From: a bacterium
GTDB taxonomy: Bacteria > SAR324 > NAC60-12
Assembly: GCA_965233585.1 (NCBI GenBank)
Contig: CBDDTI010000743.1
Coordinates: 1 to 20,032, forward strand
Direction of reading: 5' to 3'
DNA: 20,032 nt
Shown here: one piece after another, positions 7,000-20,032 of the stretch
Layout: the number at the start of each line of letters is the position of its first letter
How positions within the stretch are numbered: the first letter of the stretch is position 1
Program-made: the position numbers and the translations under genes
The notes under the pieces: generated by a model
Seen by the model: the letters and a program-made list of their open reading frames with translations, nothing else
Databases searched by the model: none
Told to the model about the DNA's origin: nothing

Positions 7000-7194
7000 A
7001 GTAGTAGGGTTGTGGAGTAATGTCCCTACATCACTCTCATTCGAGCTTGTTACGCTCTAAAATCACCTTAAAACGTTCTCAAAACACCTTAAAACAGGCT
7101 GAAACCGTCTTTCAACCATCCGTTTACCGATAAAAACCATCTTGATGCGCTCTCAAAACACCTTGATGGCATCTACATTAAGGTTGTTTCAACC

Positions 7195-7490
7195 TGAAAT
7201 CGGCTTGTAATCGTCTGCAACCGGCTTGTTTTCGTCTGCAATCGGCTTGCAACAGGCTCGATCGAGCCTGCAATCGGCTTGTTTTCGTCTGCAATCGGCT
7301 TGCAACAACCTCAATCGAGCCTGCAATCGGCTTGTTTTCGTCTGCAATCGGCTTGCAACAGGCTCAATCGAGCCTGCAATCGGCTTGTTTTCGTCTGCAA
7401 TCGGCTTGCAACAGGCTCAATCGAGCCTGTAATCGGCTTGTTTTCGTCTGCAATCGGCCTGTTGCAAGCCGATTGCAAGCCGTTTGCAAC
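7195..7490 (+). repeat. 53-bp tandem repeat (~4.5 copies) of CTGCAATCGGCTTG sub-units, ending in an inverted sub-unit
   Basis: GTTTTCGTCTGCAATCGG recurs at 7228, 7281, 7334, 7387 and 7440; TTGCAAGCCGATTGCA at ~7462 is the reverse complement of the core. Confidence 0.9.
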
Positions 7491-7628
7491 ATCAATTTTT
7501 CCACTTTCAACGTCTTGAATCAGTTCAAGGTTCTGAGAACGGAAAACGTTCAATTTCCACTTTCAACGTCTTGAATCAGTTCGGGGGCGCGAAGAAAGGT
7601 TCTGAGAACGAAAAACGTTCAATTTCCC
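7491..7628 (+). repeat. Two-copy direct repeat in the terminal region
   Basis: TTTCCACTTTCAACGTCTTGAATCAGTTC and AAGGTTCTGAGAACG(G/A)AAAACGTTCAATTTCC each occur twice. Confidence 0.85.
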
Positions 7629-7989: not shown

Positions 7990-9070
7990 ATAAAAGAAAA
8001 AATTGTTAGGTTTCATGCTTTTATTGTTTGGCTGGGTGGTCCGAAAGTTCCTGGAAAAATAATTCGGATCTCCAACAAACGATAAAATTATGATCAACCA
8101 TCAACTCCCATCAAAACACATCCTCGAGTCAGAAAAATTATAACGTTTCATGTTTTTAGCGAATGTGACAGGTTTAAATTTTTAACAAATTCATTTAGAC
8201 TTCTCATAATCGCTTTAAAACGTCGAACGATCTACAATTCTGCTTTAAATTTATAATCATTATTTTTCTGTTGTCAAGATTGTTATTCACGATTTTTTGG
8301 TCCTTGTGTACATTTTAGAGTGAGTTTGAAATTTCTCAGTCTATTTTGTATGCAAAAAACTAGAAAATCATAAACAGCGGAATATCTTCATCCTAATTGT
8401 CAAGAACATTTTCTCACGCTTTTTTGGCCTTTGTGTAGCTGCTGAATTATTTTATTAAGCTCTACCCAAGGGCCGATAAATTATGAGAAGGCACTTCAAA
8501 TACTCCGCCGAATAAGATTTTATAAAATGCGACATGTTGATTTAATTTGTGAGTGGTTTTCATCATCCATCAAGAATACCGTTCTTTACACTCTTTTGGC
8601 AGTATGTGAAGCTCAAATTTTTCCATACATTATTTGCGTTTTACAAACGCCTTAAGATTGTAAATAATCCACATCATCGTCATTAAGAAGATTATTCTCT
8701 TAGGTTTTTCACTGTCGATTATTCGCTTAATTTTTATTTTATTAAGCAAATACTCTACGGTTTATAAACTATGAGAAGTTACTTCGAAAACTTTGTCAAA
8801 TACGTGTTTATAATTAGTAAATCGTGCTATAATATTTTATTGGTGAATGCGTTTGTGATTGTTTTCATCATTAATTGTGAACATCGGCTTCTCGTTCTTT
8901 TGGTAATTGTACGGCTCAAATTTTTTAAAAATAATTTGAGCCCTACAAACGCCTTAAGATTGGAAGCAATCTACATCGTCGGAAGCACATCCAAGCGCAA
9001 GACTTCATTGTCAAGAACATTGGTCATGCTTTTTAAATTCCTGTACGACGGCTGGATTTTAATTTATCAA
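7990..9070. repeat. Degenerate spaced repeat array, probably non-coding
   Basis: A motif like TCAAGAACATT..TCACGCTTTTTGG..TGTGTA..GCTCAAATTTTT recurs at ~8128, 8273, 8398, 8569, 8682, 8870 and 9009. ~8440-8670 and ~8725-8970 are diverged duplicates (both contain TTTTATTAAGC, ATGAGAAG and TACAAACGCCTTAAGATTG). Confidence 0.55.
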
Positions 9071-9887: not shown

Positions 9888-11628
9888 TTAAATTGGATTT
9901 TTAATTACAATGTTTAAAATTACTCTTCGATCGTCGTTAAATTCAATCAAATTCCCGTCTAATCTCCTCAGCTCGATCTTCATGTTGTCTAAATAATCAA
10001 CATTGCATCTTATGAATTCTAAATGTTCGAAATGGATAGAACAGTAATCATTTTGTGTGGATTGGCCGATTGTCGGTATAACTCTAAATATTGGGTAAAA
10101 TTTGTCTCCAATAATGGAATGTTGAACAAAATTTGCATAACATATCATAACACCGGGATATAACTTGTAAACGTCTATTGGTTGTGGTGCTTCAAAAAAT
10201 CTTTCCTTAGTCACTGCAAGCGTGACGTAATCACCTCGTTCCTCAATTCTTGCAAGTTCTTTCTCCGAGTAATCGTACATTCCTAAAAACGGGCAAAAGT
10301 TTTTGGGAATGCTTATCGAAAAGGGTTTATCTGTTTTAGCCACAATCCTAAAGAACCCGTTAAAGTTGTCAAAATGTAAAATTTCCTTTAGTTCTTCAGA
10401 TAACAGACGGTTCATTGATGTTGTTAGATCATCAGAGTTGCAGAAATAAAGTTTTGGTATTTCCACGACGTGTCTTTTTGTTTCGTTTTGGGTCATTAAC
10501 ACATTAAAGATAAACGGATTCCTTCCAATTGATTCTGGAATGCTACATATGGTGTTGGGAAAAGATATATCCATCAAGGCTATTTTTGCGTTTTGATTCA
10601 AATTTATTGGATGTTTTAAGTGCACCCAAAAGCTACTATTTGTATTTTCGTAATTCAATTTGGTATCTACTTGTGAATCAATTCGTACGTGCGTTAATTC
10701 GTAATCCATATTTTTGTCTTTTTCTTTTAAATGAAAATGCACTATAGACGGCTGACCTTCGTTTAAACTTAAAAGATTCCCAAAAGAATCTGTAAATTGA
10801 GTGTTTATCGTTTCGATATTGGTTTGTCGCACCTGATAATATCTGATTTTTTTTACATTATGGTAAAAATAATAACCTTCCATTTGATTAGGCAAAGTCG
10901 TTGTAAACATAATTGTGGAATAACTATTTCCGCTGGGAACGTCGGAAATAATATTTGATTTTATTTGAACCAGACCGGGTTTCAAAACGGAATACGCTTT
11001 AATTGCTGTAGTTAGAAGCGCAAAATTTTTCTTTACAGAAAAGTATGCATATTCGTTGTCGAATAACTTAATTGTTTTTGCTTGGGAGGACACAAAGCCG
11101 TTTTGGTAACATTTTAATTTTAAAATTTTTATTAAATGTTTATGTATCAACAAATATCTATTATAATTGTAATTTTCATTTTCCATTTCTTTTTTCGGAT
11201 TTTCATCTATTACGTAAACTTTTTCATCTTTACCCCCTGATTTGGGTTTAAAACTATACAATCTCATTCCTTCCTTGTAAATATATTGCATCAAGTTTTG
11301 CATCAGTCTATGCACTGTCAATATCCTCTTCATCTAAATCAGGCAAAACCCAAATGGATTTTGTCTGGTCTAAAATTTCGGACCTTATGTCTTCTTCCGA
11401 AGAATCTATAGATGTTAATTCGTTTTTTAGCGTGATAAAACAAGGTTGGCCTTTTGACAAAGTCAATTGGTTGTAATTGTAATGTAATCCAATAGACACT
11501 ACCCCAATTTCCCATTCTCTATCTTTCAAGTCTAAATTTTGTGGAAATAAATTGGTAAAAGAATTCAAAGTATTTTTGTCATCCGTATCGGAACTAGCGT
11601 TTGACACGCAATAAATATTATAATCCAT
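9888..11628 (-). CDS. Minor capsid protein (penton/PX-like) with two tandem penton domains, split by a +1 frameshift near 11310-11333
   Basis: ORF 11308-11628 has the penton N-terminal motif (SNASS..NTLNSFTNLFPQNLDL..EWEIGV). ORF 9888-11333 completes domain 1 (..FTDSFGNLL..IVHFHLK) and then repeats the fold (IDSQ..NTNSSFWVHLKHPINL..KIALMDISFP..HSIIGD..PIFRVIP..IELRRLDGNLIEF). Confidence 0.75.
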
Positions 11629-11634
11629 TCCGCG

Positions 11635-12724
11635 CTATTGTGGCATATCGACTATGTCTTTTTCGTATGTCCAACTAGGGTTTTTATACCCTTTCCATTT
11701 TATTAAAGCCATTTTTTCTCCGGTTTTTTTATCTTTTTTTGTCCGAAGAATCTTTTCGATGGCAAATACTTCTGGCTCATCTACGGGTGTAAGTTCACTT
11801 TCATAAAAATTTCCTTCCAAAGTTTCATCCTGTTCCAAAGTCTCTAACTCATAAGTGGGTTTTGGCAAACGTGTAGAAATTGATTTTATTTTAAAAATTT
11901 CTTCTTTGAATTGCGGCGTAAATCCTCTGTCGAATTTCCCCTTCATAATGCTAATACGCACGGTTTGACCGATTTTGTATTTTGGTTTCGTTCTTTTAAT
12001 CTTTGAATAAACCAATTCTTGTTTTCTTCTAATGTGATAGGTTCTCCCGGGGAGTTCGGCTTCGGCGGGTGACATTCCGATCATGCGATGTTTACGATTG
12101 TTGTAGGTATGGACAAGAAAGGGTAACGCGTCAATGTACCTATCGGTATTTTCGTGAGTCATGTATCTAAACAACAGGTTTTTTAAAGTTCGGTTAAATC
12201 TTTCCACAAAGGGGGCGTGCACAAAATTATTGCTGTGTAACAGAAGAATGTTATTGTTTTTGCAGTAGGCTTGAAACAATTTATTCTTAATTTCCGCTCC
12301 TTTATCGGCTAAAATTCTACGCGGAAATTGTTTTGCTCTTTTCATAATAGATTCAAATCCTTCCATAAATGTTTTTGCCATTTTATTTTTTAAGTGGTTC
12401 TACAAAGGCGAATCGTGTAAAAATATCGATGGCTGTCAAAAGGTATCTATTAGAATCATTTTGTTCAGCCAAATTTCCTAAATCTATAAGGTCAATTTGA
12501 AACTGATACCGTTTCCGATAAGCAAATGTTGGATTTCTCGGTCTGGGAAATTTAGGCTGTTTGTGTAATGTGTAGGAGTCTGTTCCTTTTAGCCACTCCT
12601 CGATTAACGTCAAAGGGATTTGTTTTTCATAATAATGATAGATTAGGGCGGGAGATGCAAAAGCTATTGGCGAACCCGGTTTCGCGTATTCTTTTAAAAA
12701 AGTCTCTTTTGTTGTTGTCGACAT
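11635..12724 (-). CDS. int: Polinton retroviral-like DDE integrase with C-terminal chromodomain, split by a +1 frameshift at ~12385
   Basis: FQIDLIDL..YLLTAIDIFTRFAFVEPLK / ILADKGAE / VERFNRTLK / YNNRKHRMIGMSP, and chromodomain FAIEKIL..LIKWKGY..SW. Removing one A from CTTAAAAAATAAAATG joins the two ORFs as PLKNKMAK. Confidence 0.92.
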
Positions 12725-13126
12725 TTAAAACAGAGGTTCTTTCGATATTTTGCGCCTTTTTTTCCTAGATTGCGTAATTGACGAGGGTTTCCTTTTTCTG
12801 TTCGAATTTTGAGTTCGATAGTCGTCGTTGCTATCGGCTTGTCTGGCAGCGTTAAGCAAAATACCTCGTGTAGCGGATTTTAAACGTTGTTTTGCTTTTC
12901 TGCCCACCGGTTGACCCTCCAAAGCTTCTATCGCCGTTTCTACAGCCGCTCTTGTCGCTTCTTTTTTTAAAGCTTTTCCTACAGATTTTATCGGGGCGCT
13001 TTTAGCTACACGTCCAATAGTTTTTATCGTCGATTTTGCTACCGGCATTAATCCGCGAAAAATTCCGGAAAAAAGCGATCCAATTCCCGAACCTCGTTGC
13101 CAATGTAAACCGCTGTGGTAATTCAT
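12725..13126 (-). CDS. Virion core / membrane-lytic protein (adintovirus cupiennin-like, pVI/pVII-like)
   Basis: N-terminal QRGSGIGSLFSGIFRGLMP (protease-site-like Gly motif plus amphipathic helix) and basic C-terminus RKRK..RKKRRK, typical of this Polinton gene. Confidence 0.7.
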   Translation of the reverse strand: MNYHSGLHWQRGSGIGSLFSGIFRGLMPVAKSTIKTIGRVAKSAPIKSVGKALKKEATRAAVETAIEALEGQPVGRKAKQRLKSATRGILLNAARQADSNDDYRTQNSNRKRKPSSITQSRKKRRKISKEPLF

Positions 13127-13135
13127 ATATGTATT

Positions 13136-13894
13136 TTATTGATTTAGACTTTTACGACATCTGTACAACGACATAACACTGACGCCTAAAATGTGAGCCA
13201 TATTTTTGACGCTTAAATATCGCAATTTGGATTCTTTTAAAAAGGCATAAGCGCATGCAGCTAATAAAGTTCTTGGAGCAAAAGAACTATTTTCATTTTT
13301 TTTTAATATTTGTTCAATGGACGTCATTTCTTGATAATTTAACTGCAGCGGCTGTAAAAAATATTCTTTCATATCTTTCGCCTTTATGTAATTGTCTAAT
13401 TTATTCATGTCAGTCAAATCCCGTCTGTATAATTTCATCCAACGCCACACTATCTTTGGATTAATGCCGACTTCTTGACACAAATGACTTATCGGACGGG
13501 GAATTTTTTCTTTTATCAACCCTTGATACAACGTCATAACCACCAATCCTTTGGCATCTATTTTAATTTTTCCACCTTTTCGATAATGCCACGCTGCTAT
13601 ATCTGACCATAGATTCAAAATAACATTTGTAACATCATTATTTAAATGTAATTTATTGCATAAAATTTTTAAAATATTTTTTTCTTTCTCTAAATGCTGG
13701 TTTTTTTGTTTAATTTCTTTATCAAATGTTTTTATTTTGTCCCATTCTGTTTCCAAATTTGATTTTGTTAAATTATAGCAATATATTTTATCAATAACTA
13801 ATCCACACTCGGTACACACCACGTCCCCTTGCCTGGTGTCTTCTATTGGATATTGATGATTGCATATTTTAGTATAATCTACTTTCTCGTGCAT
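13136..13894 (-). CDS. TFIIB: TFIIB-like transcription initiation factor (virus-encoded)
   Basis: Zn ribbon CNH..IEDTRQGDVVCTECGLVID (compare TFIIB VEDYRAGDMICPECGLVV); two cyclin-fold repeats LCNKLHL..TLYQGLIKEKIPRPISHLC and APRTLLAACAY..SVKNMAHILGVSVMSL. ATG at 13894; the ORF track starts at a TTG at 13930. Confidence 0.85.
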   Translation of the reverse strand: MHEKVDYTKICNHQYPIEDTRQGDVVCTECGLVIDKIYCYNLTKSNLETEWDKIKTFDKEIKQKNQHLEKEKNILKILCNKLHLNNDVTNVILNLWSDIAAWHYRKGGKIKIDAKGLVVMTLYQGLIKEKIPRPISHLCQEVGINPKIVWRWMKLYRRDLTDMNKLDNYIKAKDMKEYFLQPLQLNYQEMTSIEQILKKNENSSFAPRTLLAACAYAFLKESKLRYLSVKNMAHILGVSVMSLYRCRKSLNQ

Positions 13895-13950
13895 AATTTC
13901 GATGTTTATTGTATAGATATCAAAACTCAACTAAATAAACATTATTCACA

Positions 13951-14493
13951 TCATTCGATTTTATATTTTTTTAATAATTTAATAATAATTTTTATTCCTT
14001 GTTTAGCATCTTCTTCGCTGGAGGCTCCAATTATAACTATTTTTCCCGACGAAAATATTAAAGCCGAACACTTTTTTACTTTTAAAAATACGCCTGGGAA
14101 TTTTTCTGGGTCGTATCTCTTATGAATGATTTCAAAATCTTCATTCGATTTTAAATGGTTGTAAAATCTTAATAATTTGATCTCTTCTTTTGATTGATAC
14201 AAACAAGTCATGTTTTCTACTTTAAATATTTTAACAACAAATTCGCTATTTATAACAAGTTTTAGTTCGTCTAATGCTTTCGCAATGTGTTCTGTAGAGG
14301 GAATTTTTGTAATGTTTACGTGAAAATGTCGATTTTGCTTTGTTTTGGTAAATATAATAAAGGAATATTTTTTTCTTATTACAACAAAATTATTATAACG
14401 TTTTATTGTATTATCGGTATTAAAAGAGATTTCGTCGCTGTTAATAAGATGAACTTTACAACTAATTTTTACATTGCTGACCAGCACTTCCAT
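13951..14493 (-). CDS. TBP: TATA-binding protein (TBP)-like factor, core only (virus-encoded, 180 aa)
   Basis: Repeat 2 FKVENMT..IKL..YDPEKFPGVFLK..ALIFSSGKIVIIGASSEED matches TBP (FKIQNM..YEPELFPGL..LIFVSGKVVLTGA). Diverged repeat 1: VSNVK..YNNFVVIR..FIIF..VNITK. Likely ATG at 14493. Confidence 0.88.
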   Translation of the reverse strand: MEVLVSNVKISCKVHLINSDEISFNTDNTIKRYNNFVVIRKKYSFIIFTKTKQNRHFHVNITKIPSTEHIAKALDELKLVINSEFVVKIFKVENMTCLYQSKEEIKLLRFYNHLKSNEDFEIIHKRYDPEKFPGVFLKVKKCSALIFSSGKIVIIGASSEEDAKQGIKIIIKLLKKYKIE

Positions 14494-14499
14494 CTTGTT

Positions 14500-15843
14500 A
14501 TGGGCGTACCTGAAAAAAGCGGAATTGCCGGATTGGCCGTTGAACAAAACGACGGCACTGAAAGTGGTTTAGCGCTTCACTCACCGTTAGAAGTAGAAAC
14601 AGGTTTATTAGATGGGGCTCACGTTATTTACAATAGCGTGGCTTCTATCACCAACACCGGACCGGTCGAATTTCTTGTTCCTCGCGATAACGAATGCTCT
14701 TTTATACTGAATCAAACCAGACTTAGCGGCTATTTTGTAGTGACAAATGACGATGGTGAACAGGTAAAAAATGATACTAAAGTCACACTGGCTAATCATT
14801 TTGCCGCTTGTTTATTCAGCCAAGTAGAAGTATATTTAAACGGGGTCCAAGTAGCTGATTTAAGTTCAGCGGTCACTTATCCTTGGAGAATGTTCATACA
14901 ATCATTCCTAAGTTACAATTCGGAGGTGAAAAAAACTTATCTGGCTGCTGAAGGATATTATCCCGAAAGTGCTAACGAAGTTGATACCATAAATGTTACA
15001 ACCGCCACACCGTCTTTGAATAAAAGAAAGCAGTTAATTATGGATGGTAAAAAAGTGTATTTCAATACGCGCTTAGCCGTTGATCTGTTTGACACCGACA
15101 GATTTTTACCTCCGAATGTGGACATCAAAATTAAGCTGGTTAGATCCGCTGAAAAGTTTGGTTTGCTTCAAGATGCTGCGGCAGAAAAACCTTTTAAAAT
15201 TGTTTTAAAAGATGTTAAATTACATATGAGAAAGGTGTTGCCCACATTATTGCTACGGGAAAGTTTTAAAAACAAACTCTTAAAAGAACCGTGCTACCTG
15301 CCTTTTAGCGCCACACGTTTAAGACATTATGTTATTCCTCAAGGCGTGTCGTCCTTTAACATCGCCAATATCGCTAATGGTACTTTGCCGAAACAAGTGT
15401 TTTTTGTGATGGTTCACAATCAAGCCATGTCACACGCCCCGGACAAAAACCCTTTCAATTTTCAACATTTTAATCTGTCTACTTTTAATTTAAAAAAGAA
15501 CGGACAATGCGTATTTCCCAGACCATTTCAACCTAATATAAACGAGGGGGACGCCATTGACTTGTATCGGCATTTATACGACAGTATTGGCATTTCGCAC
15601 GGCAATCAATCCATTGGTTTAACGTATGAACAATATTTAAACGGAAGATTTTTTCTAGCGGCCGATTTAACGCCGGATCAATGTAATTCGTTCCACGTGC
15701 ATCCGGAAAATTACGGAAATTTAGATTTAGAATTGGCTTTTTCCGTAATAACTCCTCATCCTATATACGTTCTGGCTTTTTCTGTTTTTAACTCCGGCAT
15801 TAAAATAGATCAATTCCAACAAGTCATAAAAGGAACAAATTAA
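14500..15843 (+). CDS. MCP: Major capsid protein (double jelly-roll hexon / PY), 447 aa
   Basis: GPVEFLVP..LNQTRL..LFSQVEVYLNG..YPWRMFI..DRFLPPNVDIKIKLVR..LPKQVFFVMV..NPFNFQHFN..DLTPD..GNLDLEL are Polinton MCP motifs. Likely start is the ATG at 14500. Confidence 0.9.
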   Translation: MGVPEKSGIAGLAVEQNDGTESGLALHSPLEVETGLLDGAHVIYNSVASITNTGPVEFLVPRDNECSFILNQTRLSGYFVVTNDDGEQVKNDTKVTLANHFAACLFSQVEVYLNGVQVADLSSAVTYPWRMFIQSFLSYNSEVKKTYLAAEGYYPESANEVDTINVTTATPSLNKRKQLIMDGKKVYFNTRLAVDLFDTDRFLPPNVDIKIKLVRSAEKFGLLQDAAAEKPFKIVLKDVKLHMRKVLPTLLLRESFKNKLLKEPCYLPFSATRLRHYVIPQGVSSFNIANIANGTLPKQVFFVMVHNQAMSHAPDKNPFNFQHFNLSTFNLKKNGQCVFPRPFQPNINEGDAIDLYRHLYDSIGISHGNQSIGLTYEQYLNGRFFLAADLTPDQCNSFHVHPENYGNLDLELAFSVITPHPIYVLAFSVFNSGIKIDQFQQVIKGTN

Positions 15844-15846
15844 ATC

Positions 15847-16329
15847 ATGGAAAACGGATTATCAAATATCTTTTTATCCAATTATATTCGACCAAGATGT
15901 AAATATTTCATCGGGGTTTTTTCAAGCGATAATTTGCCGTCCGATTCGCTTGAGTTGCCTTGTTGCTTGATCACCAACTTATCCAAAAAAAATCAAAAAG
16001 GATCACATTTCATAGCGATGTATATCAACGGAAAAAATCAACTCTATTATTTTGATTCATTCGGTTTTTTACCGCCGATATGGAATCAATGTTTGATGAA
16101 GTTCTTACGACCTTGGATAGAAAAAAACTCATTCAAAACAATCCTGTCTTATTCCATTCAGGATTTTCGTTCTTTGTTTTGCGGCTGGTACGTGACCGCT
16201 TTTTGTTTATCCGTGGGCAACAATTTAATGTCTCCTCAACAATTTGTTAAAATATTTGTAAAAAAACCCAAAATAAAAAATGATGAAATTGTAACTCATT
16301 TTATAAAAAAACTTGAAAATAAACGATGA
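15847..16329 (+). CDS. Adenain-like cysteine protease (virion maturation)
   Basis: FIGVFSSD..ITN..GSHFIAMY..YYFDSFG..IQDFRSLFCGWY supplies catalytic His, Asp and Cys plus the oxyanion Gln. Confidence 0.92.
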   Translation: MENGLSNIFLSNYIRPRCKYFIGVFSSDNLPSDSLELPCCLITNLSKKNQKGSHFIAMYINGKNQLYYFDSFGFLPPIWNQCLMKFLRPWIEKNSFKTILSYSIQDFRSLFCGWYVTAFCLSVGNNLMSPQQFVKIFVKKPKIKNDEIVTHFIKKLENKR

Positions 16330-16346
16330 TATATATTTTACTTTCA

Positions 16347-17192
16347 TTATAATTTCGGGTATTTTCCCGGAAAAAGTAATTTTTTTTTAACAGCATCTGC
16401 ATCAGTTGTTGAAAGTTTTTTTGATTTAGATCTAGTTTGTACGGGAGAAATAGTAAAAGTTTTCTTTTTCGCACCTCCTGATCCTGTTTTGAGGGATGAC
16501 ATTGAAGCTGAAGGGGATTTTGATGCTTGTGAAGAGACCGAGGCTATATCTTTACCAATTTTTTCTGTGTCAAATATGGACAATTCTTTCATATGATCTC
16601 TTACAAGGTGTTTGCCGAATTGCGCATCGTCAACATACTGCTTCCCGCATGCGGTGAAAGGACAAACTATTTTGCCGTCTGAATTTTTTTGTGTCAATGC
16701 CTTTATAACAGGCGAATTTCGCCATTCTGGCATGTCAGGAGTTGAAGTATCGTCCTTGCTTTTTGGTCTTGAAGCGGTATAAAACAAGTCTGGATCGGGT
16801 TCCCTTTCCATAATGGGAGTAGTGGGCAAAAACTGAGCGGTATTTTCTTTTTGTTGGGGAGTTTGAGCGGTTGTTGATCTTGAAATAGATTGGTACGTGC
16901 GACCCGTACTGCTATCGACTTGTACTGGCGGCATAACATTCGATATATTATCAGAACCAAAACGGTACAATTTATCACCGCTTTGATTCATTTTTTGCCT
17001 GTCTTGTAAATTTTTAAAATTAATGGCATTTTCGATGTAATTGGACGTATTTGGTTTTTCATTCATAGAAATAAGTTCTTTTTTTGTTTCATCATCTTCT
17101 ATATTTTTTATTAAAGAATGATATAGCCTTTTGGGGACTAAAAACATGGAATATATTTCATCATTTGTTTTTCTTTTCACACCTGAACTCAT
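16347..17192 (-). CDS. Polinton protein with a C2H2 zinc finger and basic Ser/Thr-rich tail
   Basis: N-terminal MFLVP motif; CPFTACGKQYVDDAQFGKHLVRDH (C-x4-C-x12-H-x4-H); basic C-terminus. Confidence 0.7.
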   Translation of the reverse strand: MSSGVKRKTNDEIYSMFLVPKRLYHSLIKNIEDDETKKELISMNEKPNTSNYIENAINFKNLQDRQKMNQSGDKLYRFGSDNISNVMPPVQVDSSTGRTYQSISRSTTAQTPQQKENTAQFLPTTPIMEREPDPDLFYTASRPKSKDDTSTPDMPEWRNSPVIKALTQKNSDGKIVCPFTACGKQYVDDAQFGKHLVRDHMKELSIFDTEKIGKDIASVSSQASKSPSASMSSLKTGSGGAKKKTFTISPVQTRSKSKKLSTTDADAVKKKLLFPGKYPKL

Positions 17193-17195
17193 CCT

Positions 17196-17570
17196 TTAAC
17201 GACGACGTTGCAAGCTCTTTTTTGCAATAATTTGAGCTAAAATAGGGACGATAATGCTGGCAATTGCCGATAAAGTTCCTAAAATTCCGCCCCTTTGTAG
17301 TATTATTCTTTTTTTTGAAATGTCGGAAGAGCGACGAGGCGGCGTGGCAAGACGTCTGAACTCCCCTAAATGAGCTCTTATTTTTTTCTGAAGTCGTGTT
17401 CGCACTTCGCCATGTAAGGGCAATTCGCCGTTCAAAACGTAATGTAAAATACGACAAAGCAATTCAACGCCGCGATCGTCCAAATAATTTAAAAAATTAG
17501 CGCAATCTTGATGTTTTAATTTTTTTATTGCATTAAAAAGCGAATTAGCTTTTTCTAATTTTTTTGACAT
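17196..17570 (-). CDS. Virion core protein (adintovirus gasderminX / pX-like)
   Basis: LCRILHYVLNGELPL..FRRLA..KKRIILQRGG followed by hydrophobic ILGTLSAIASIIVPILAQII, i.e. an adenain-type GG cleavage site before an amphipathic helix; adjacent to the ATPase. Confidence 0.7.
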   Translation of the reverse strand: MSKKLEKANSLFNAIKKLKHQDCANFLNYLDDRGVELLCRILHYVLNGELPLHGEVRTRLQKKIRAHLGEFRRLATPPRRSSDISKKRIILQRGGILGTLSAIASIIVPILAQIIAKKSLQRRR

Positions 17571-17617
17571 TTTAACAGTAATTATTTTTAATTTTTCTTA
17601 AATAGATATGAAATTTT

Positions 17618-18313
17618 TTAAACAGTAACGTAGGCTTTCATTAATCCTTCATAAGGAAAGATGTTACTTCGAATTCTGACTTTATCGTCTTGCTGTTGAT
17701 GGAAATCTAGAAGAAGATATCCGTGACTTCGACCGTTAACTGCTTCTCTATATGCTTTATTTAAGATTCCAACACGACCGGGAAAAATTTGTTTTGCCAA
17801 ATGTGCAACGGCGCTTCTGTCCCGCGGATTGTTAAAAAGGATCATGTATTGCGTATTTATGCTTAATGTCCGTAAATCGCCTTTTTTGTCAAATAAATTT
17901 TGACAAAGAAAAATGGTGAAACAATTGTAATGATGGGTCAAAACCGTAAAAAAATGTTTTAATATTTGCCCAACATCGTCTAAATAATCGTCAAAAACAA
18001 TCAATTTGGGCATTTTTCTCGGATATAATTCTAAAATATCTTTCAACTCTTCAATTGAATTTGGAATATTTTTGAATTTACGAAAAGACGGAAATTGTGT
18101 GTCAGAACCTCTGCCCTCATTCATGTCGTCTTCCATGTACTGATATGCTTTTTGCGGTTCCTTGTAAAACAACAACATTGTTTCAGGCGGAGTTGCAAAA
18201 TATTCGTGCCGACGAAGCACTAAATGTTTTAGCCACGTTGTTTTTCCGCTTGATGTTGGACCGACAACCAACATGTTGGACGGAATATTAAACCTCAAAT
18301 CAAAACCGTTCAT
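17618..18313 (-). CDS. A32/FtsK-like genome packaging ATPase
   Basis: Walker A GPTSSGKT, Walker B LIVFDD, FT..HHYNCFTIFLCQNLF..RTLSINTQY..NNPRD and GYLLLDF. Confidence 0.93.
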   Translation of the reverse strand: MNGFDLRFNIPSNMLVVGPTSSGKTTWLKHLVLRRHEYFATPPETMLLFYKEPQKAYQYMEDDMNEGRGSDTQFPSFRKFKNIPNSIEELKDILELYPRKMPKLIVFDDYLDDVGQILKHFFTVLTHHYNCFTIFLCQNLFDKKGDLRTLSINTQYMILFNNPRDRSAVAHLAKQIFPGRVGILNKAYREAVNGRSHGYLLLDFHQQQDDKVRIRSNIFPYEGLMKAYVTV

Positions 18314-18379: not shown

Positions 18380-19173
18380 TTATTTACAAATTTGACATTT
18401 AGACATTTTGTTGTTAACAATAAGACAATTTCCTAGCGATAAAGTGTGACATCCGCAATTTAAAACATATCTTTTGGAATCCATTGCCGACAACGCAATT
18501 TTTCTTTGAAAACACGTTCGGATTTTGTGATTCTTTGATCTTAAATTTTTAAAAGATTTGTAAATTACAACAGTTTGCTTTAAGCACTTTTTGTAATCTG
18601 CATAAGTTAATTGCTTTTTTATACTAGATTTTTTTAAACCTTTGCATACTTTTTTCTCATCAGTTTTGTTTTTGTCCAAAAAATCGGCTATTTTCATAGA
18701 ATAACATTTTGGACGTAAGCCTATAAAATCAGTAATAGCCGCTCTACCTTTTAATTCATCTTTAAAATAAAAAAGTTGATTGGCTTTACTGTCGTCAAAA
18801 AGTGGATGTTGTTTAGGGTACTTTGAAAAATCAAACATGTGTTTCAATCTCTCCATTTCCCTTTCCAAATTGTTGCATTTAACTTTTAAAAGAAAAGAAT
18901 CCGTGTCCGAAAAACACAAAGATACATTGTCTTTGCCGAAATGTTTTTGAATGGTGTCATAGTATGATCTGTACATAAACAACTTGGACAACTCCAAAAT
19001 GGAAAATCCGACGGCTAAAGGCTTCTTAAGTTCTATCATTGCCGGCTTCTTGTTGACAGCCACTAAATTCTCATTAATGATTTGAAAATTGTTGATGTGC
19101 TGACCAAGACTGGCTTTCCTCAGACTTTTTTCATCTCCACAAAGGACCACTTCGATGTAATTTCGAACATTTT
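18380..19173 (-). CDS. polB: Protein-primed family B DNA polymerase, last exon (motif C region and thumb)
   Basis: ENVRN..KPLAVGFSILELSKLFMY..SDTDSF..FDFSKYP..HPLF..FKDE..FIGLRPKCYS..KGL. Homology begins right after the acceptor TTTTATATTTTTCAG (AG at 19175-19174). Confidence 0.9.
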
Positions 19174-19349
19174 CTGAAAAATATAAAATAAAATTAAACA
19201 TTTTATAAAGAATACAACATTTTTATAAAAATTCATTATAAAGTGTGTAGGAGTTTGGAGATTTATTTTTTAAAAACTTCCCAAAACCATGTGGCAATTT
19301 TCAAAACAAACTTTGGACAGGAAGAGGAGGAGGAAGAAGAAAAGGAAAA

Positions 19350-20032
19350 ATGATGATGATGGAGATGAGGAGGGGGTACAGGAGGTTAAGGGAGGAAAGG
19401 GAGGAAGATGAAGAGCCGCTTTTGACAGTGGAGAAGAAGGAGGTGGAGGAGAAGAGGAAGAACCGGAGACCGGGCCTGATCCGGCGGATCCGGTCGGCCG
19501 TGGCCGACATTTTCGATGCTCCGCCGTCCGCTGCCGCCTCCGCCACCGCTAGCGCCGCTGCCGTTGCACTCTCTGTTAGCGTTGCTGTGCTCGCCGCCAA
19601 CGGTGCTGGCGGTGGCGGAGGCGGCAGCGGTCGCGCTGTCCGAGGCCTTCAAAATGAAAATTTTATTGAGCCTGACGTCCCCACCGGCATTCTTGTCGAC
19701 CTCCCGCCAATAACATCTCCTCCAACGTCCCCACCGAGGTGCCCACTGAGGTCCCCGTCCCCACCGAGGCGCTCATCGAAGCTCCCACCGAGTCCCCCAT
19801 CGAGATGCTCATCGAGGCCCCCACCGAGTTTCTCATCGAGGTCCCCACCGCTGAGATTCCCTCCAACGTCCCCACCGAGGTGCCCATTGAGGTCCCCGTC
19901 CCCATCGAGGTGCCCATCGAGGCCCCCACCGAGTTCCCCACCGAGGCGTTCATCGAGTTCCCCATCGAGATCCCCACTGACGTCCCCATCGAGGCCCCCA
20001 TCCCCATCAGACTCCCCGCCGCAGACGTCGGG
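19350..20032 (+). CDS. GC-rich Ser/Pro/Arg low-complexity protein, open to the window end, antisense within the polB intron
   Basis: Manual translation from the ATG at 19350: MMMMEMRRGYRRLREEREEDEE..RKNRRPGLIRR..AAAVALSVSVAVLAA..TSPPTSPPRCPLRSPSPPRR.., with no stop up to 20032 (so absent from the ORF track); TATAAA boxes at 19204-19242. Confidence 0.5.
   Translation, partial: MMMMEMRRGYRRLREEREEDEEPLLTVEKKEVEEKRKNRRPGLIRRIRSAVADIFDAPPSAAASATASAAAVALSVSVAVLAANGAGGGGGGSGRAVRGLQNENFIEPDVPTGILVDLPPITSPPTSPPRCPLRSPSPPRRSSKLPPSPPSRCSSRPPPSFSSRSPPLRFPPTSPPRCPLRSPSPSRCPSRPPPSSPPRRSSSSPSRSPLTSPSRPPSPSDSPPQTS
19715..20010 (+). repeat. 12-bp-unit GC-rich minisatellite (CCCCA[C/T]CGAGG) with a 141-bp higher-order duplication
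   Basis: CTCCAACGTCCCCACCGAGGTGCCCA[C/T]TGAGGTCCCCGTCCCCA occurs at 19720 and 19861; unit lengths are multiples of 3. Confidence 0.8.

Follow-up and report, generated by a model that had tools for sequence, protein, structure and literature searches.

Two adjacent genes encoding homologs of the general transcription factors TBP and TFIIB were found in an AT-rich, virus-like element of ~11 kb carried by contig CBDDTI010000743.1 (assembly GCA_965233585.1), of which a 20,032-nt stretch, referred to here as the window, was analyzed. TBP and TFIIB (TFB in archaea) together make up the smallest set of factors able to position an RNA polymerase of the Pol II type. Judged from their sequences, the TBP-like and TFIIB-like proteins would probably (at a probability of roughly 0.6) form a private minimal promoter-recognition module that recruits RNA polymerase II (Pol II) of the host. 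Recruitment of the host enzyme is favored because no polymerase gene is seen in the element and because its TFIIB-like protein is closest to Pol II-type TFIIB.

The region from 13136 to 14493 consists of exactly two ATG-initiated open reading frames (ORFs) on the minus strand, adjacent, co-oriented and free of internal stops, and the ORF listing fills this interval exactly, as anticipated by an initial annotation of the sequence that had described intact neighboring ORFs with TBP and TFIIB signatures. The sizes of both products fit those of their relatives (180 aa for the TBP-like protein, with relatives of 178–200 aa, and 252 aa for the TFIIB-like protein, with relatives of 224–289 aa). The claimed AT-rich, element-like composition was likewise recovered, the TBP-like gene having a guanine plus cytosine (GC) content of 0.27 and the TFIIB-like gene of 0.31, as compared to 0.31–0.43 for the remaining element genes and ~0.47–0.54 for the flanks. 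The annotation had seen no viral RNA polymerase, in agreement with a Pfam scan of 15 element ORFs in which no RNA polymerase family matched at E ≤ 0.1.

The TBP-like protein was recognized by sequence and by structure searches. Pfam TBP (PF00352) matched residues 90–177 (E 1.1e-18; 67.2 bits, with the cut-off at 22.9), the NCBIfam TBP model covered residues 30–177 (E 2e-15), and all 35 matches obtained with phmmer against PDB sequences were TBPs. Only the C-terminal repeat gave sequence matches to solved TBPs, and it matched both repeats of the targets. The AlphaFold model (predicted local distance difference test [pLDDT] 91.8; predicted TM-score [pTM] 0.82) displayed two strand-rich lobes, each closed by a long helix. 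Foldseek comparison of this model with the PDB returned 44 matches at E ≤ 1e-3, ranks 1–44 all being TBP-containing chains (TMq 0.62–0.73; identity 19–27%; 189–200 aligned columns). The C-terminal repeat retains F-P-G and I-F-S-S-G-K stretches that line up with their counterparts in solved TBPs, as well as a Y-D-P-E-K-F-P-G stirrup stretch whose human counterpart we take to be the TFIIB-contact site. At the positions that are presumably those of the DNA-kinking phenylalanine pairs in TBP–DNA structures, F132 and F147 of the C-lobe are invariant, and F48 is the only N-lobe residue that aligns. By its sequence, the C-terminal repeat can be firmly assigned to TBP, and the predicted structure makes a TBP-like fold of the N-lobe likely. 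A profile of 22 element-type relatives, free of cellular sequences, scored archaeal TBPs at 78–82 bits and eukaryotic TBPs at 51–58 bits, an order that may reflect either a deep origin or only a lysine/isoleucine-rich composition.

The TFIIB-like protein comprises a zinc ribbon (residues ~10–36), a linker (37–68) and two cyclin-fold repeats (~69–165 and 172–250), with a conserved helix-turn-helix at the end. The predicted ribbon ligands are C11, H13, C27 and C30, of which the three cysteines show no variation across 64 sequences and H13 reaches at least 90% conservation; the Pfam model Zn_Ribbon_TF (PF08271) scored 27.8 bits (cut-off 29; E 1.8e-6). Comparison of the window protein alone with human TFIIB gave a weak collinear alignment of the core (E 2.1e-4). 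A profile of the close family (A1; 32 sequences) aligned the ribbon and a collinear core (E 1.4e-7), and a profile of the wide family (A3; 64 sequences, namely the window protein and 63 relatives from a library search with A1) matched human TFIIB with an E-value of 3.4e-28 and 102 bits. In the A3 alignment, the ribbon corresponded to human residues 15–51 and profile positions 48–222 to human residues 109–288, spanning both cyclin repeats. The next best scores were those of yeast TFIIB (1.7e-17), archaeal TFB (4.8e-16), Brf1 (4.1e-15) and Brf2 (4.6e-11), and the best 13 of 28 A3 matches in the PDB were TFIIB, TFB or Brf.

Structure prediction for the TFIIB-like protein (pLDDT 73.6) yielded a small beta ribbon, a disordered segment at residues 36–65 and ten helices arranged in two bundles. 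Foldseek placed TFIIB, TFB and Brf chains of the PDB at ranks 1–37, followed by cyclins, with 16–20% identity to TFIIB; the low TM-scores (~0.3) stem from a different orientation of the domains in the model. Look-alikes of the protein in the Atlas were TFIIB clusters. A C-terminal stretch, G-V-S-V-M-S-L-Y-R-C, is nearly invariant in alignment A1 and lines up with the final helices of the human TFIIB core, which we take to be the helix-turn-helix that reads the TFIIB recognition element (BRE). The 252-aa protein is firmly identified as a TFIIB homolog. Both family assignments of the initial annotation were thereby borne out, TBP by Pfam, PDB and Foldseek searches and TFIIB by profile A3 and Foldseek.

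Relatives of both genes are numerous. A word-indexed search returned 48 TFIIB-like clusters (39–98% identity, the 98% row possibly being the window's own cluster) and 36 element-type TBP-like clusters (48–97% identity), together with 4 archaeal-type TBPs. Profile A1, run against a library of 1.84 billion proteins clustered at 50% identity, detected 623 clusters at E ≤ 1e-3, of which 170 reached E ≤ 1e-10 and 15 reached E ≤ 1e-30. The full-length representatives listed from this search had a median length of 231 aa, and a C-x-H...C-x2-C ribbon was present in 103 of 130 of them. When 48 of the 150 relatives listed were scanned against Pfam, 31 had a match to a TFIIB domain (E ≤ 1e-3), and 12 exceeded the gathering score of the TFIIB cyclin repeat (PF00382). 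Many relatives are full-length; shorter fragments also occur, as expected for decaying copies. Two scans of bacterial and archaeal genome DNA produced 31 and 34 pattern matches and no confirmed relative.

Both families are strongly constrained, with 34 invariant columns among the 32 TFIIB-like sequences of A1 (down to 39% identity) and 48 positions invariant in 22 of 22 TBP-like sequences. The N-half is the most constrained part of the TBP-like family, 28 of the 48 invariant positions lying within residues 1–84. The initial annotation had allowed that the genes might be a recent host retrocopy confined to this one copy. Neither gene is private to it, and a host retrocopy was rejected on the divergence of the proteins (16–27% identity to solved homologs, with 19–27% for TBPs), the element-like GC content and the size of the families; both genes belong to the element and are not host copies.

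Linkage to the candidate major capsid gene was assessed from the lengths of the longest contigs of each cluster. Identical lengths were shared by TFIIB-like and TBP-like clusters in four cases, by TFIIB-like and capsid clusters in five, and by TBP-like and capsid clusters in three, with one value, 8156, common to all three. On the matched contigs, identity to the window was 54–82% for the capsid protein, 42–75% for the TFIIB-like protein and 54–58% for the TBP-like protein. The TBP-like and TFIIB-like genes therefore appear to travel with the capsid gene and to diverge faster than it does.

Several observations weigh against a module of the kind proposed. In the TBP-like protein, the first kinking phenylalanine of the N-lobe falls, in the alignment, within a 7-residue deletion relative to archaeal TBPs; the deletion covers the N-terminal stirrup and its phenylalanine, and the first helix (H1) is absent from the N-lobe in the model. 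Comparison of the N-half with the C-half of the TBP-like family by hhalign indicated no similarity (probability 0.2%), and the N-half reached a probability of only 0.6% (E 0.1) against 4 archaeal TBPs, though the two were collinear. The TBP fold of the N-half comes from one AlphaFold run, whose alignment included those 4 archaeal sequences, 3 of which were confirmed as TBPs. In the TFIIB-like protein, the counterpart of the B-reader and B-linker amounts to ~32 residues that are predicted with pLDDT < 50 (residues 36–65) and are variable and indel-rich across the family, and human TFIIB residues ~52–108 were left unaligned by profile A3; canonical start-site functions may be absent. Taken alone, the window protein falls below every Pfam TFIIB cut-off and has no PF00382 match, and it gives sub-threshold matches to helix-turn-helix families and to an IS3-transposase N terminus (E 1.3e-8; 34.6 bits, with the cut-off at 160), the latter covering both cyclin repeats. 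Synteny in other copies is read from exact matches in the lengths of the longest contigs rather than from gene order. Finally, the present copy is a defective, decayed provirus with a split integrase, a polymerase fragment and no terminal repeats, in which the TBP-like and TFIIB-like genes are still intact.

The sub-threshold matches and the failure of the single sequence to reach the Pfam cut-offs could speak for the 252-aa protein being a transposase-type DNA-binding protein with a zinc ribbon and a helix-turn-helix, or else for the two genes being host-derived passengers or retrocopies with no role in the element. This explanation is largely refuted and retains very little probability. The helix-turn-helix and IS3 matches are best explained by helix pairs of the cyclin core. 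Identity to solved TBPs and TFIIBs is too low for a recent host copy, the GC content is that of the element, and many conserved relatives are of intact length. A transposase identity was rejected on the first 37 Foldseek ranks, all of the TFIIB family, on the TFIIB matches of the relatives in Pfam, and on the A3 match to human TFIIB, which takes in both cyclin repeats.

A second alternative draws on the derived N-lobe and the shortened linker. Here the pair would act negatively instead of activating element genes, either by titrating host TFIIB, TBP or Pol II away or by sitting on element promoters so that the provirus stays silent, in the manner of a decoy or a repressor. In cellular TFIIB, the B-reader/B-linker segment is needed for productive initiation. 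A TBP with a highly derived N-lobe that, in the alignment, is short of one kinking phenylalanine, and a TFIIB-like protein with no alignable B-reader or B-linker, are both compatible with factors that are competent to bind and incompetent to initiate. Nevertheless, such a role is considered unlikely: the ribbon ligands are kept family-wide, both genes have been retained along with structural genes, and the keeping of TBP and TFIIB together exceeds what a simple decoy would need.

A third alternative is that the pair works not for host Pol II but for another polymerase: Pol III (as a Brf-like factor), Pol I, or that of a large DNA virus present as a co-infection, in the way that virophage-like elements rely on giant viruses. 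The A3 matches to Brf1 and Brf2 are also significant, and the closest viral structures to the TFIIB-like model, in the BFVD collection of predicted viral structures, were an archaeal-virus TFB and the TFIIBs of giant viruses, which carry their own polymerase; none of the named BFVD matches was a Polinton or adintovirus protein. Against this stand the A3 scores, which are markedly higher for human TFIIB (102 bits) than for Brf1 (59.5 bits) or Brf2 (46.2 bits), and the length of the 252-aa protein, which has no Brf-type C-terminal extension. Capsid look-alikes in animal genomes and the integrase of the element fit a nuclear life style, and no giant-virus gene was seen in the window by Pfam scan. 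Service to another polymerase is accordingly regarded as quite improbable, and recruitment of host Pol II is preferred.

The mode of action that we infer for recruitment of host Pol II comprises TBP–TFIIB binding, DNA targets, polymerase recruitment and timing. The TBP-like protein would bind and bend promoter DNA of the element, its canonical C-lobe acting on DNA in the usual way and its derived N-lobe altering specificity or partners. The core of the TFIIB-like protein would bind the C-terminal stirrup of the element TBP and, through the conserved C-terminal helix-turn-helix, the flanking DNA. The zinc ribbon would then dock host Pol II, a step proposed because the element is without its own polymerase. 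Taken together, the derived N-lobe and the missing reader and linker suggest altered DNA specificity and partner use.

With cellular TBP–TFIIB and archaeal TBP–TFB, the element shares the presence of both families, here side by side. Its TFIIB-like protein has a ribbon and two cyclin repeats collinear with human TFIIB, and the C-repeat of its TBP-like protein keeps the stirrup and both phenylalanine-bearing stretches. In contrast, the TFIIB-like protein is shorter than its cellular counterparts (252 aa versus 316–345 aa), lacks an alignable B-reader/B-linker and has a C-x-H ribbon where human TFIIB has C-x2-H spacing; neither helix H1 nor the N-terminal stirrup is present in the N-lobe of the TBP-like protein, as judged from model and alignment; and the pair resides on a mobile virus-like element at 16–27% identity to solved proteins.

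Virus-encoded homologs of TBP and TFIIB are known; here they occur in a small, polymerase-less, integrating virus. Giant viruses (Nucleocytoviricota) encode the same folds, as illustrated by the TFIIB homolog of the asfarvirus C315R type, and TFIIBs of nucleocytoplasmic large DNA viruses (NCLDVs) were among the top BFVD matches (E 1.4e-7 to 1e-3). Giant viruses also encode their own multisubunit RNA polymerase, whereas the ~11-kb element shows none. Poxvirus VITF-3 is a TBP/TFIIB-like pair, according to PMC12917281. The closest functional analogy to the proposed module is the herpesvirus factor KSHV ORF24, presented as a late-gene TBP mimic in PMC12529657, where a nuclear DNA virus without a polymerase of its own uses a private TBP-like factor to steer host Pol II to viral promoters. 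ORF24 differs in being a single large protein that itself contacts Pol II, whereas the element has a compact TBP and a separate TFIIB homolog, and the two systems are likened by function only.

Among Polinton-related viruses, a TBP gene is labeled in the legend of Figure 5 of Starrett et al. 2021 (PMC8502044; preprint 10.1101/697771) in a MELD virus or element with an adintovirus-like PolB. The label, which appears in the figure legend only, indicates that a mid-sized Polinton-related virus may contain a TBP-like gene. Section 3.4 of that paper does not discuss TBP, and TFIIB is absent from its main text and from one supplement. A full-text literature search, with figures, bioRxiv supplements and subscription journals outside its scope, found no report of TFIIB in Polintons, Mavericks or adintoviruses. 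Where papers naming both Polinton and TFIIB were examined, TFIIB served as a giant-virus marker, and the examined parts of recent Polinton papers contained no TATA term, their transcription passages, where any, concerning VLTF3 and expression patterns. The initial annotation had placed TBP and TFIIB outside the canonical Polinton gene set. For TFIIB, no earlier description in Polintons was found in the sources covered; for TBP, novelty is slightly reduced by the figure label.

The arrangement of the genes constrains where their promoters could lie. The TBP-like gene starts at 14493 on the minus strand and the capsid gene at 14500 on the plus strand, the two start codons being head to head, 6 bp apart and pointing away from each other, and the promoter of either gene must therefore be situated inside the coding sequence of the other or far away. 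The capsid frame remains open for 58 more codons upstream (14326–14499), antisense to the N terminus of the TBP-like protein, and overlap of a promoter with coding sequence may add to the strong conservation of that N terminus. On the other side, 56 nt separate the TBP-like gene from the TFIIB-like gene and 9 nt separate the latter from a basic ORF, which is followed by the integrase at a distance of 0 nt. The 8-mer ATATCTAT occurs 4 times in the window, as compared to 0.49 expected (13913–13920, 17602–17609, 11154–11161 and 1716–1723), and 2 of the 4 copies are sense-oriented and lie 19–39 nt upstream of minus-strand starts, those of the TFIIB-like gene and of the ORF at 17196–17570. A search allowing 1 mismatch mostly recovered TA-rich low-complexity DNA. 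The 8-mer is a candidate promoter element, as a lead only and from one element.

The remaining features of the element are collected in Table 1. The AT-rich island extends over ~8.0–19.25 kb of the window, is ORF-dense and has a GC content of 0.27–0.39, which rises to 0.525 past ~19.2 kb. The initial annotation had located the pair between a core-protein gene and the major capsid gene. The placement holds and the capsid candidate does adjoin; the supposed core protein, a basic 133-aa ORF, has no family match in Pfam. The seven flanking ORFs scanned had no Pfam match either.

Table 1. Coordinates of the TBP-like and TFIIB-like genes and of other features of the element in the window.
Feature	Position	Strand	Description
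ORF, no assigned function	9888–11333	−	481 aa
ORF, no assigned function	11308–11628	−	106 aa
Retroviral-type integrase candidate, two pieces	12383–12724 + 11635–12381	−	Weak rve matches; C-terminal chromodomain
Basic ORF	12725–13126	−	133 aa, pI 11.5; core protein of the initial annotation; starts 9 nt past the TFIIB-like stop codon
TFIIB-like gene	13136–13894	−	252 aa; zinc ribbon, short linker, two cyclin-fold repeats
Spacer between TBP-like and TFIIB-like genes	13895–13950	−	56 nt; holds ATATCTAT at 13913–13920
TBP-like gene	13951–14493	−	180 aa; C-terminal repeat ~85–180 canonical, N-half 1–84 derived and family-conserved
Gap between TBP-like start and capsid start	14494–14499		6 bp between divergent start codons
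Major capsid protein candidate	14500–15843	+	447 aa; 88 homologs, no direct Pfam match
Adenain-like cysteine protease candidate	15847–16329	+	160 aa; weak Peptidase_C5 match
ORF, no assigned function	16347–17192	−	281 aa
ORF, no assigned function	17196–17570	−	124 aa
Packaging ATPase candidate (P-loop)	17618–18313	−	231 aa; weak P-loop matches
Putative C-terminal fragment of protein-primed DNA polymerase B	18380–19201	−	273 aa; stops where the AT-rich DNA ends

The element is plausibly an integrated animal provirus of the Polinton/Maverick (adintovirus-like) type, each hallmark being weak when taken alone. The homologs of the capsid candidate are 22–99% identical to it, and its look-alike clusters in the Atlas (language model, score 0.98) carry the DJR-like family PF21738 in 15–30% of their members and come from taxa that are mostly Arthropoda or Echinodermata. 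The capsid start was set at 14500 rather than at the upstream ATG of the long ORF because homologs are 446–450 aa long and begin with MG[VL]P, as seen in 20 of the 88 homologs, picked across the identity range. The ATPase candidate gave sub-threshold Pfam matches to Pox_A32 (E 0.0024) and FtsK_SpoIIIE (E 0.0093), and the protease candidate gave matches to Pfam Peptidase_C5 (E 0.039) and to adenain in the PDB (E 0.69), neither of them significant. The polymerase-like ORF had no significant Pfam, profile or PDB match; it contains an FSDTDSF stretch that resembles motif C of a family B polymerase. The ORF at 16347–17192 is S/T/K-rich and contains a C-x4-C...H-x4-H stretch resembling a single C2H2 zinc finger, with no family match.

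Decay of this copy is evident at several sites. The integrase frame is broken near 12382, leaving two ORFs in different frames, the N-terminal piece corresponding to positions 9–43 of the rve profile (E 0.2) and the C-terminal piece to positions 60–95 (E 0.073), both weak matches; the C-terminal piece also carries a chromodomain (E 4.2e-5). No full-length integrase can therefore be made from this copy. None of the 14 inverted-repeat pairs found in the window bracket the island as terminal inverted repeats would, and the island ends inside the polymerase fragment, indicating that the copy is truncated or interrupted there. Beyond the polymerase end, a tandem array with units of 12, 36 and 141 nt occupies 19719–20002, and its translation is a low-complexity G/T/S/M/V repeat. 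The intervals 7052–7627 and 8556–8981, close to where the island begins on the left, contain 53-nt tandem repeats (4.6 copies, 96% matches), a number of short blocks that are duplicated and two direct repeats ~300 nt apart; these left-edge repeats could be remnants of element termini or host satellite DNA.

To our knowledge, gene expression in Polintons, Mavericks and adintoviruses is essentially uncharted, and whole reliance on host machinery is usually assumed. A private TBP/TFIIB pair conserved in a polymerase-less virus would be a new route of Pol II takeover for a small nuclear DNA virus. It would also help in locating promoters of the element and in probing whether endogenous copies can be activated, and would add a data point to the debate on the origin of giant-virus transcription factors. 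With one lobe of its TBP so altered and no reader in its TFIIB, the element provides natural experiments on what the minimal initiation machinery can do without. More tentatively, the pair may belong to an old and large animal lineage of the Polinton/adintovirus type with a dedicated initiation module, an asymmetric TBP and a reader-less TFIIB with a C-x-H ribbon, that reprograms host Pol II without TFIID or TFIIA in the manner of archaeal TBP and TFB. If this possibility were true, the 623 short TFIIB-like clusters would be the footprint of an undescribed viral transcription system, and viruses of this kind would be a possible evolutionary source or sink for the TFIIB and TBP genes of giant viruses.

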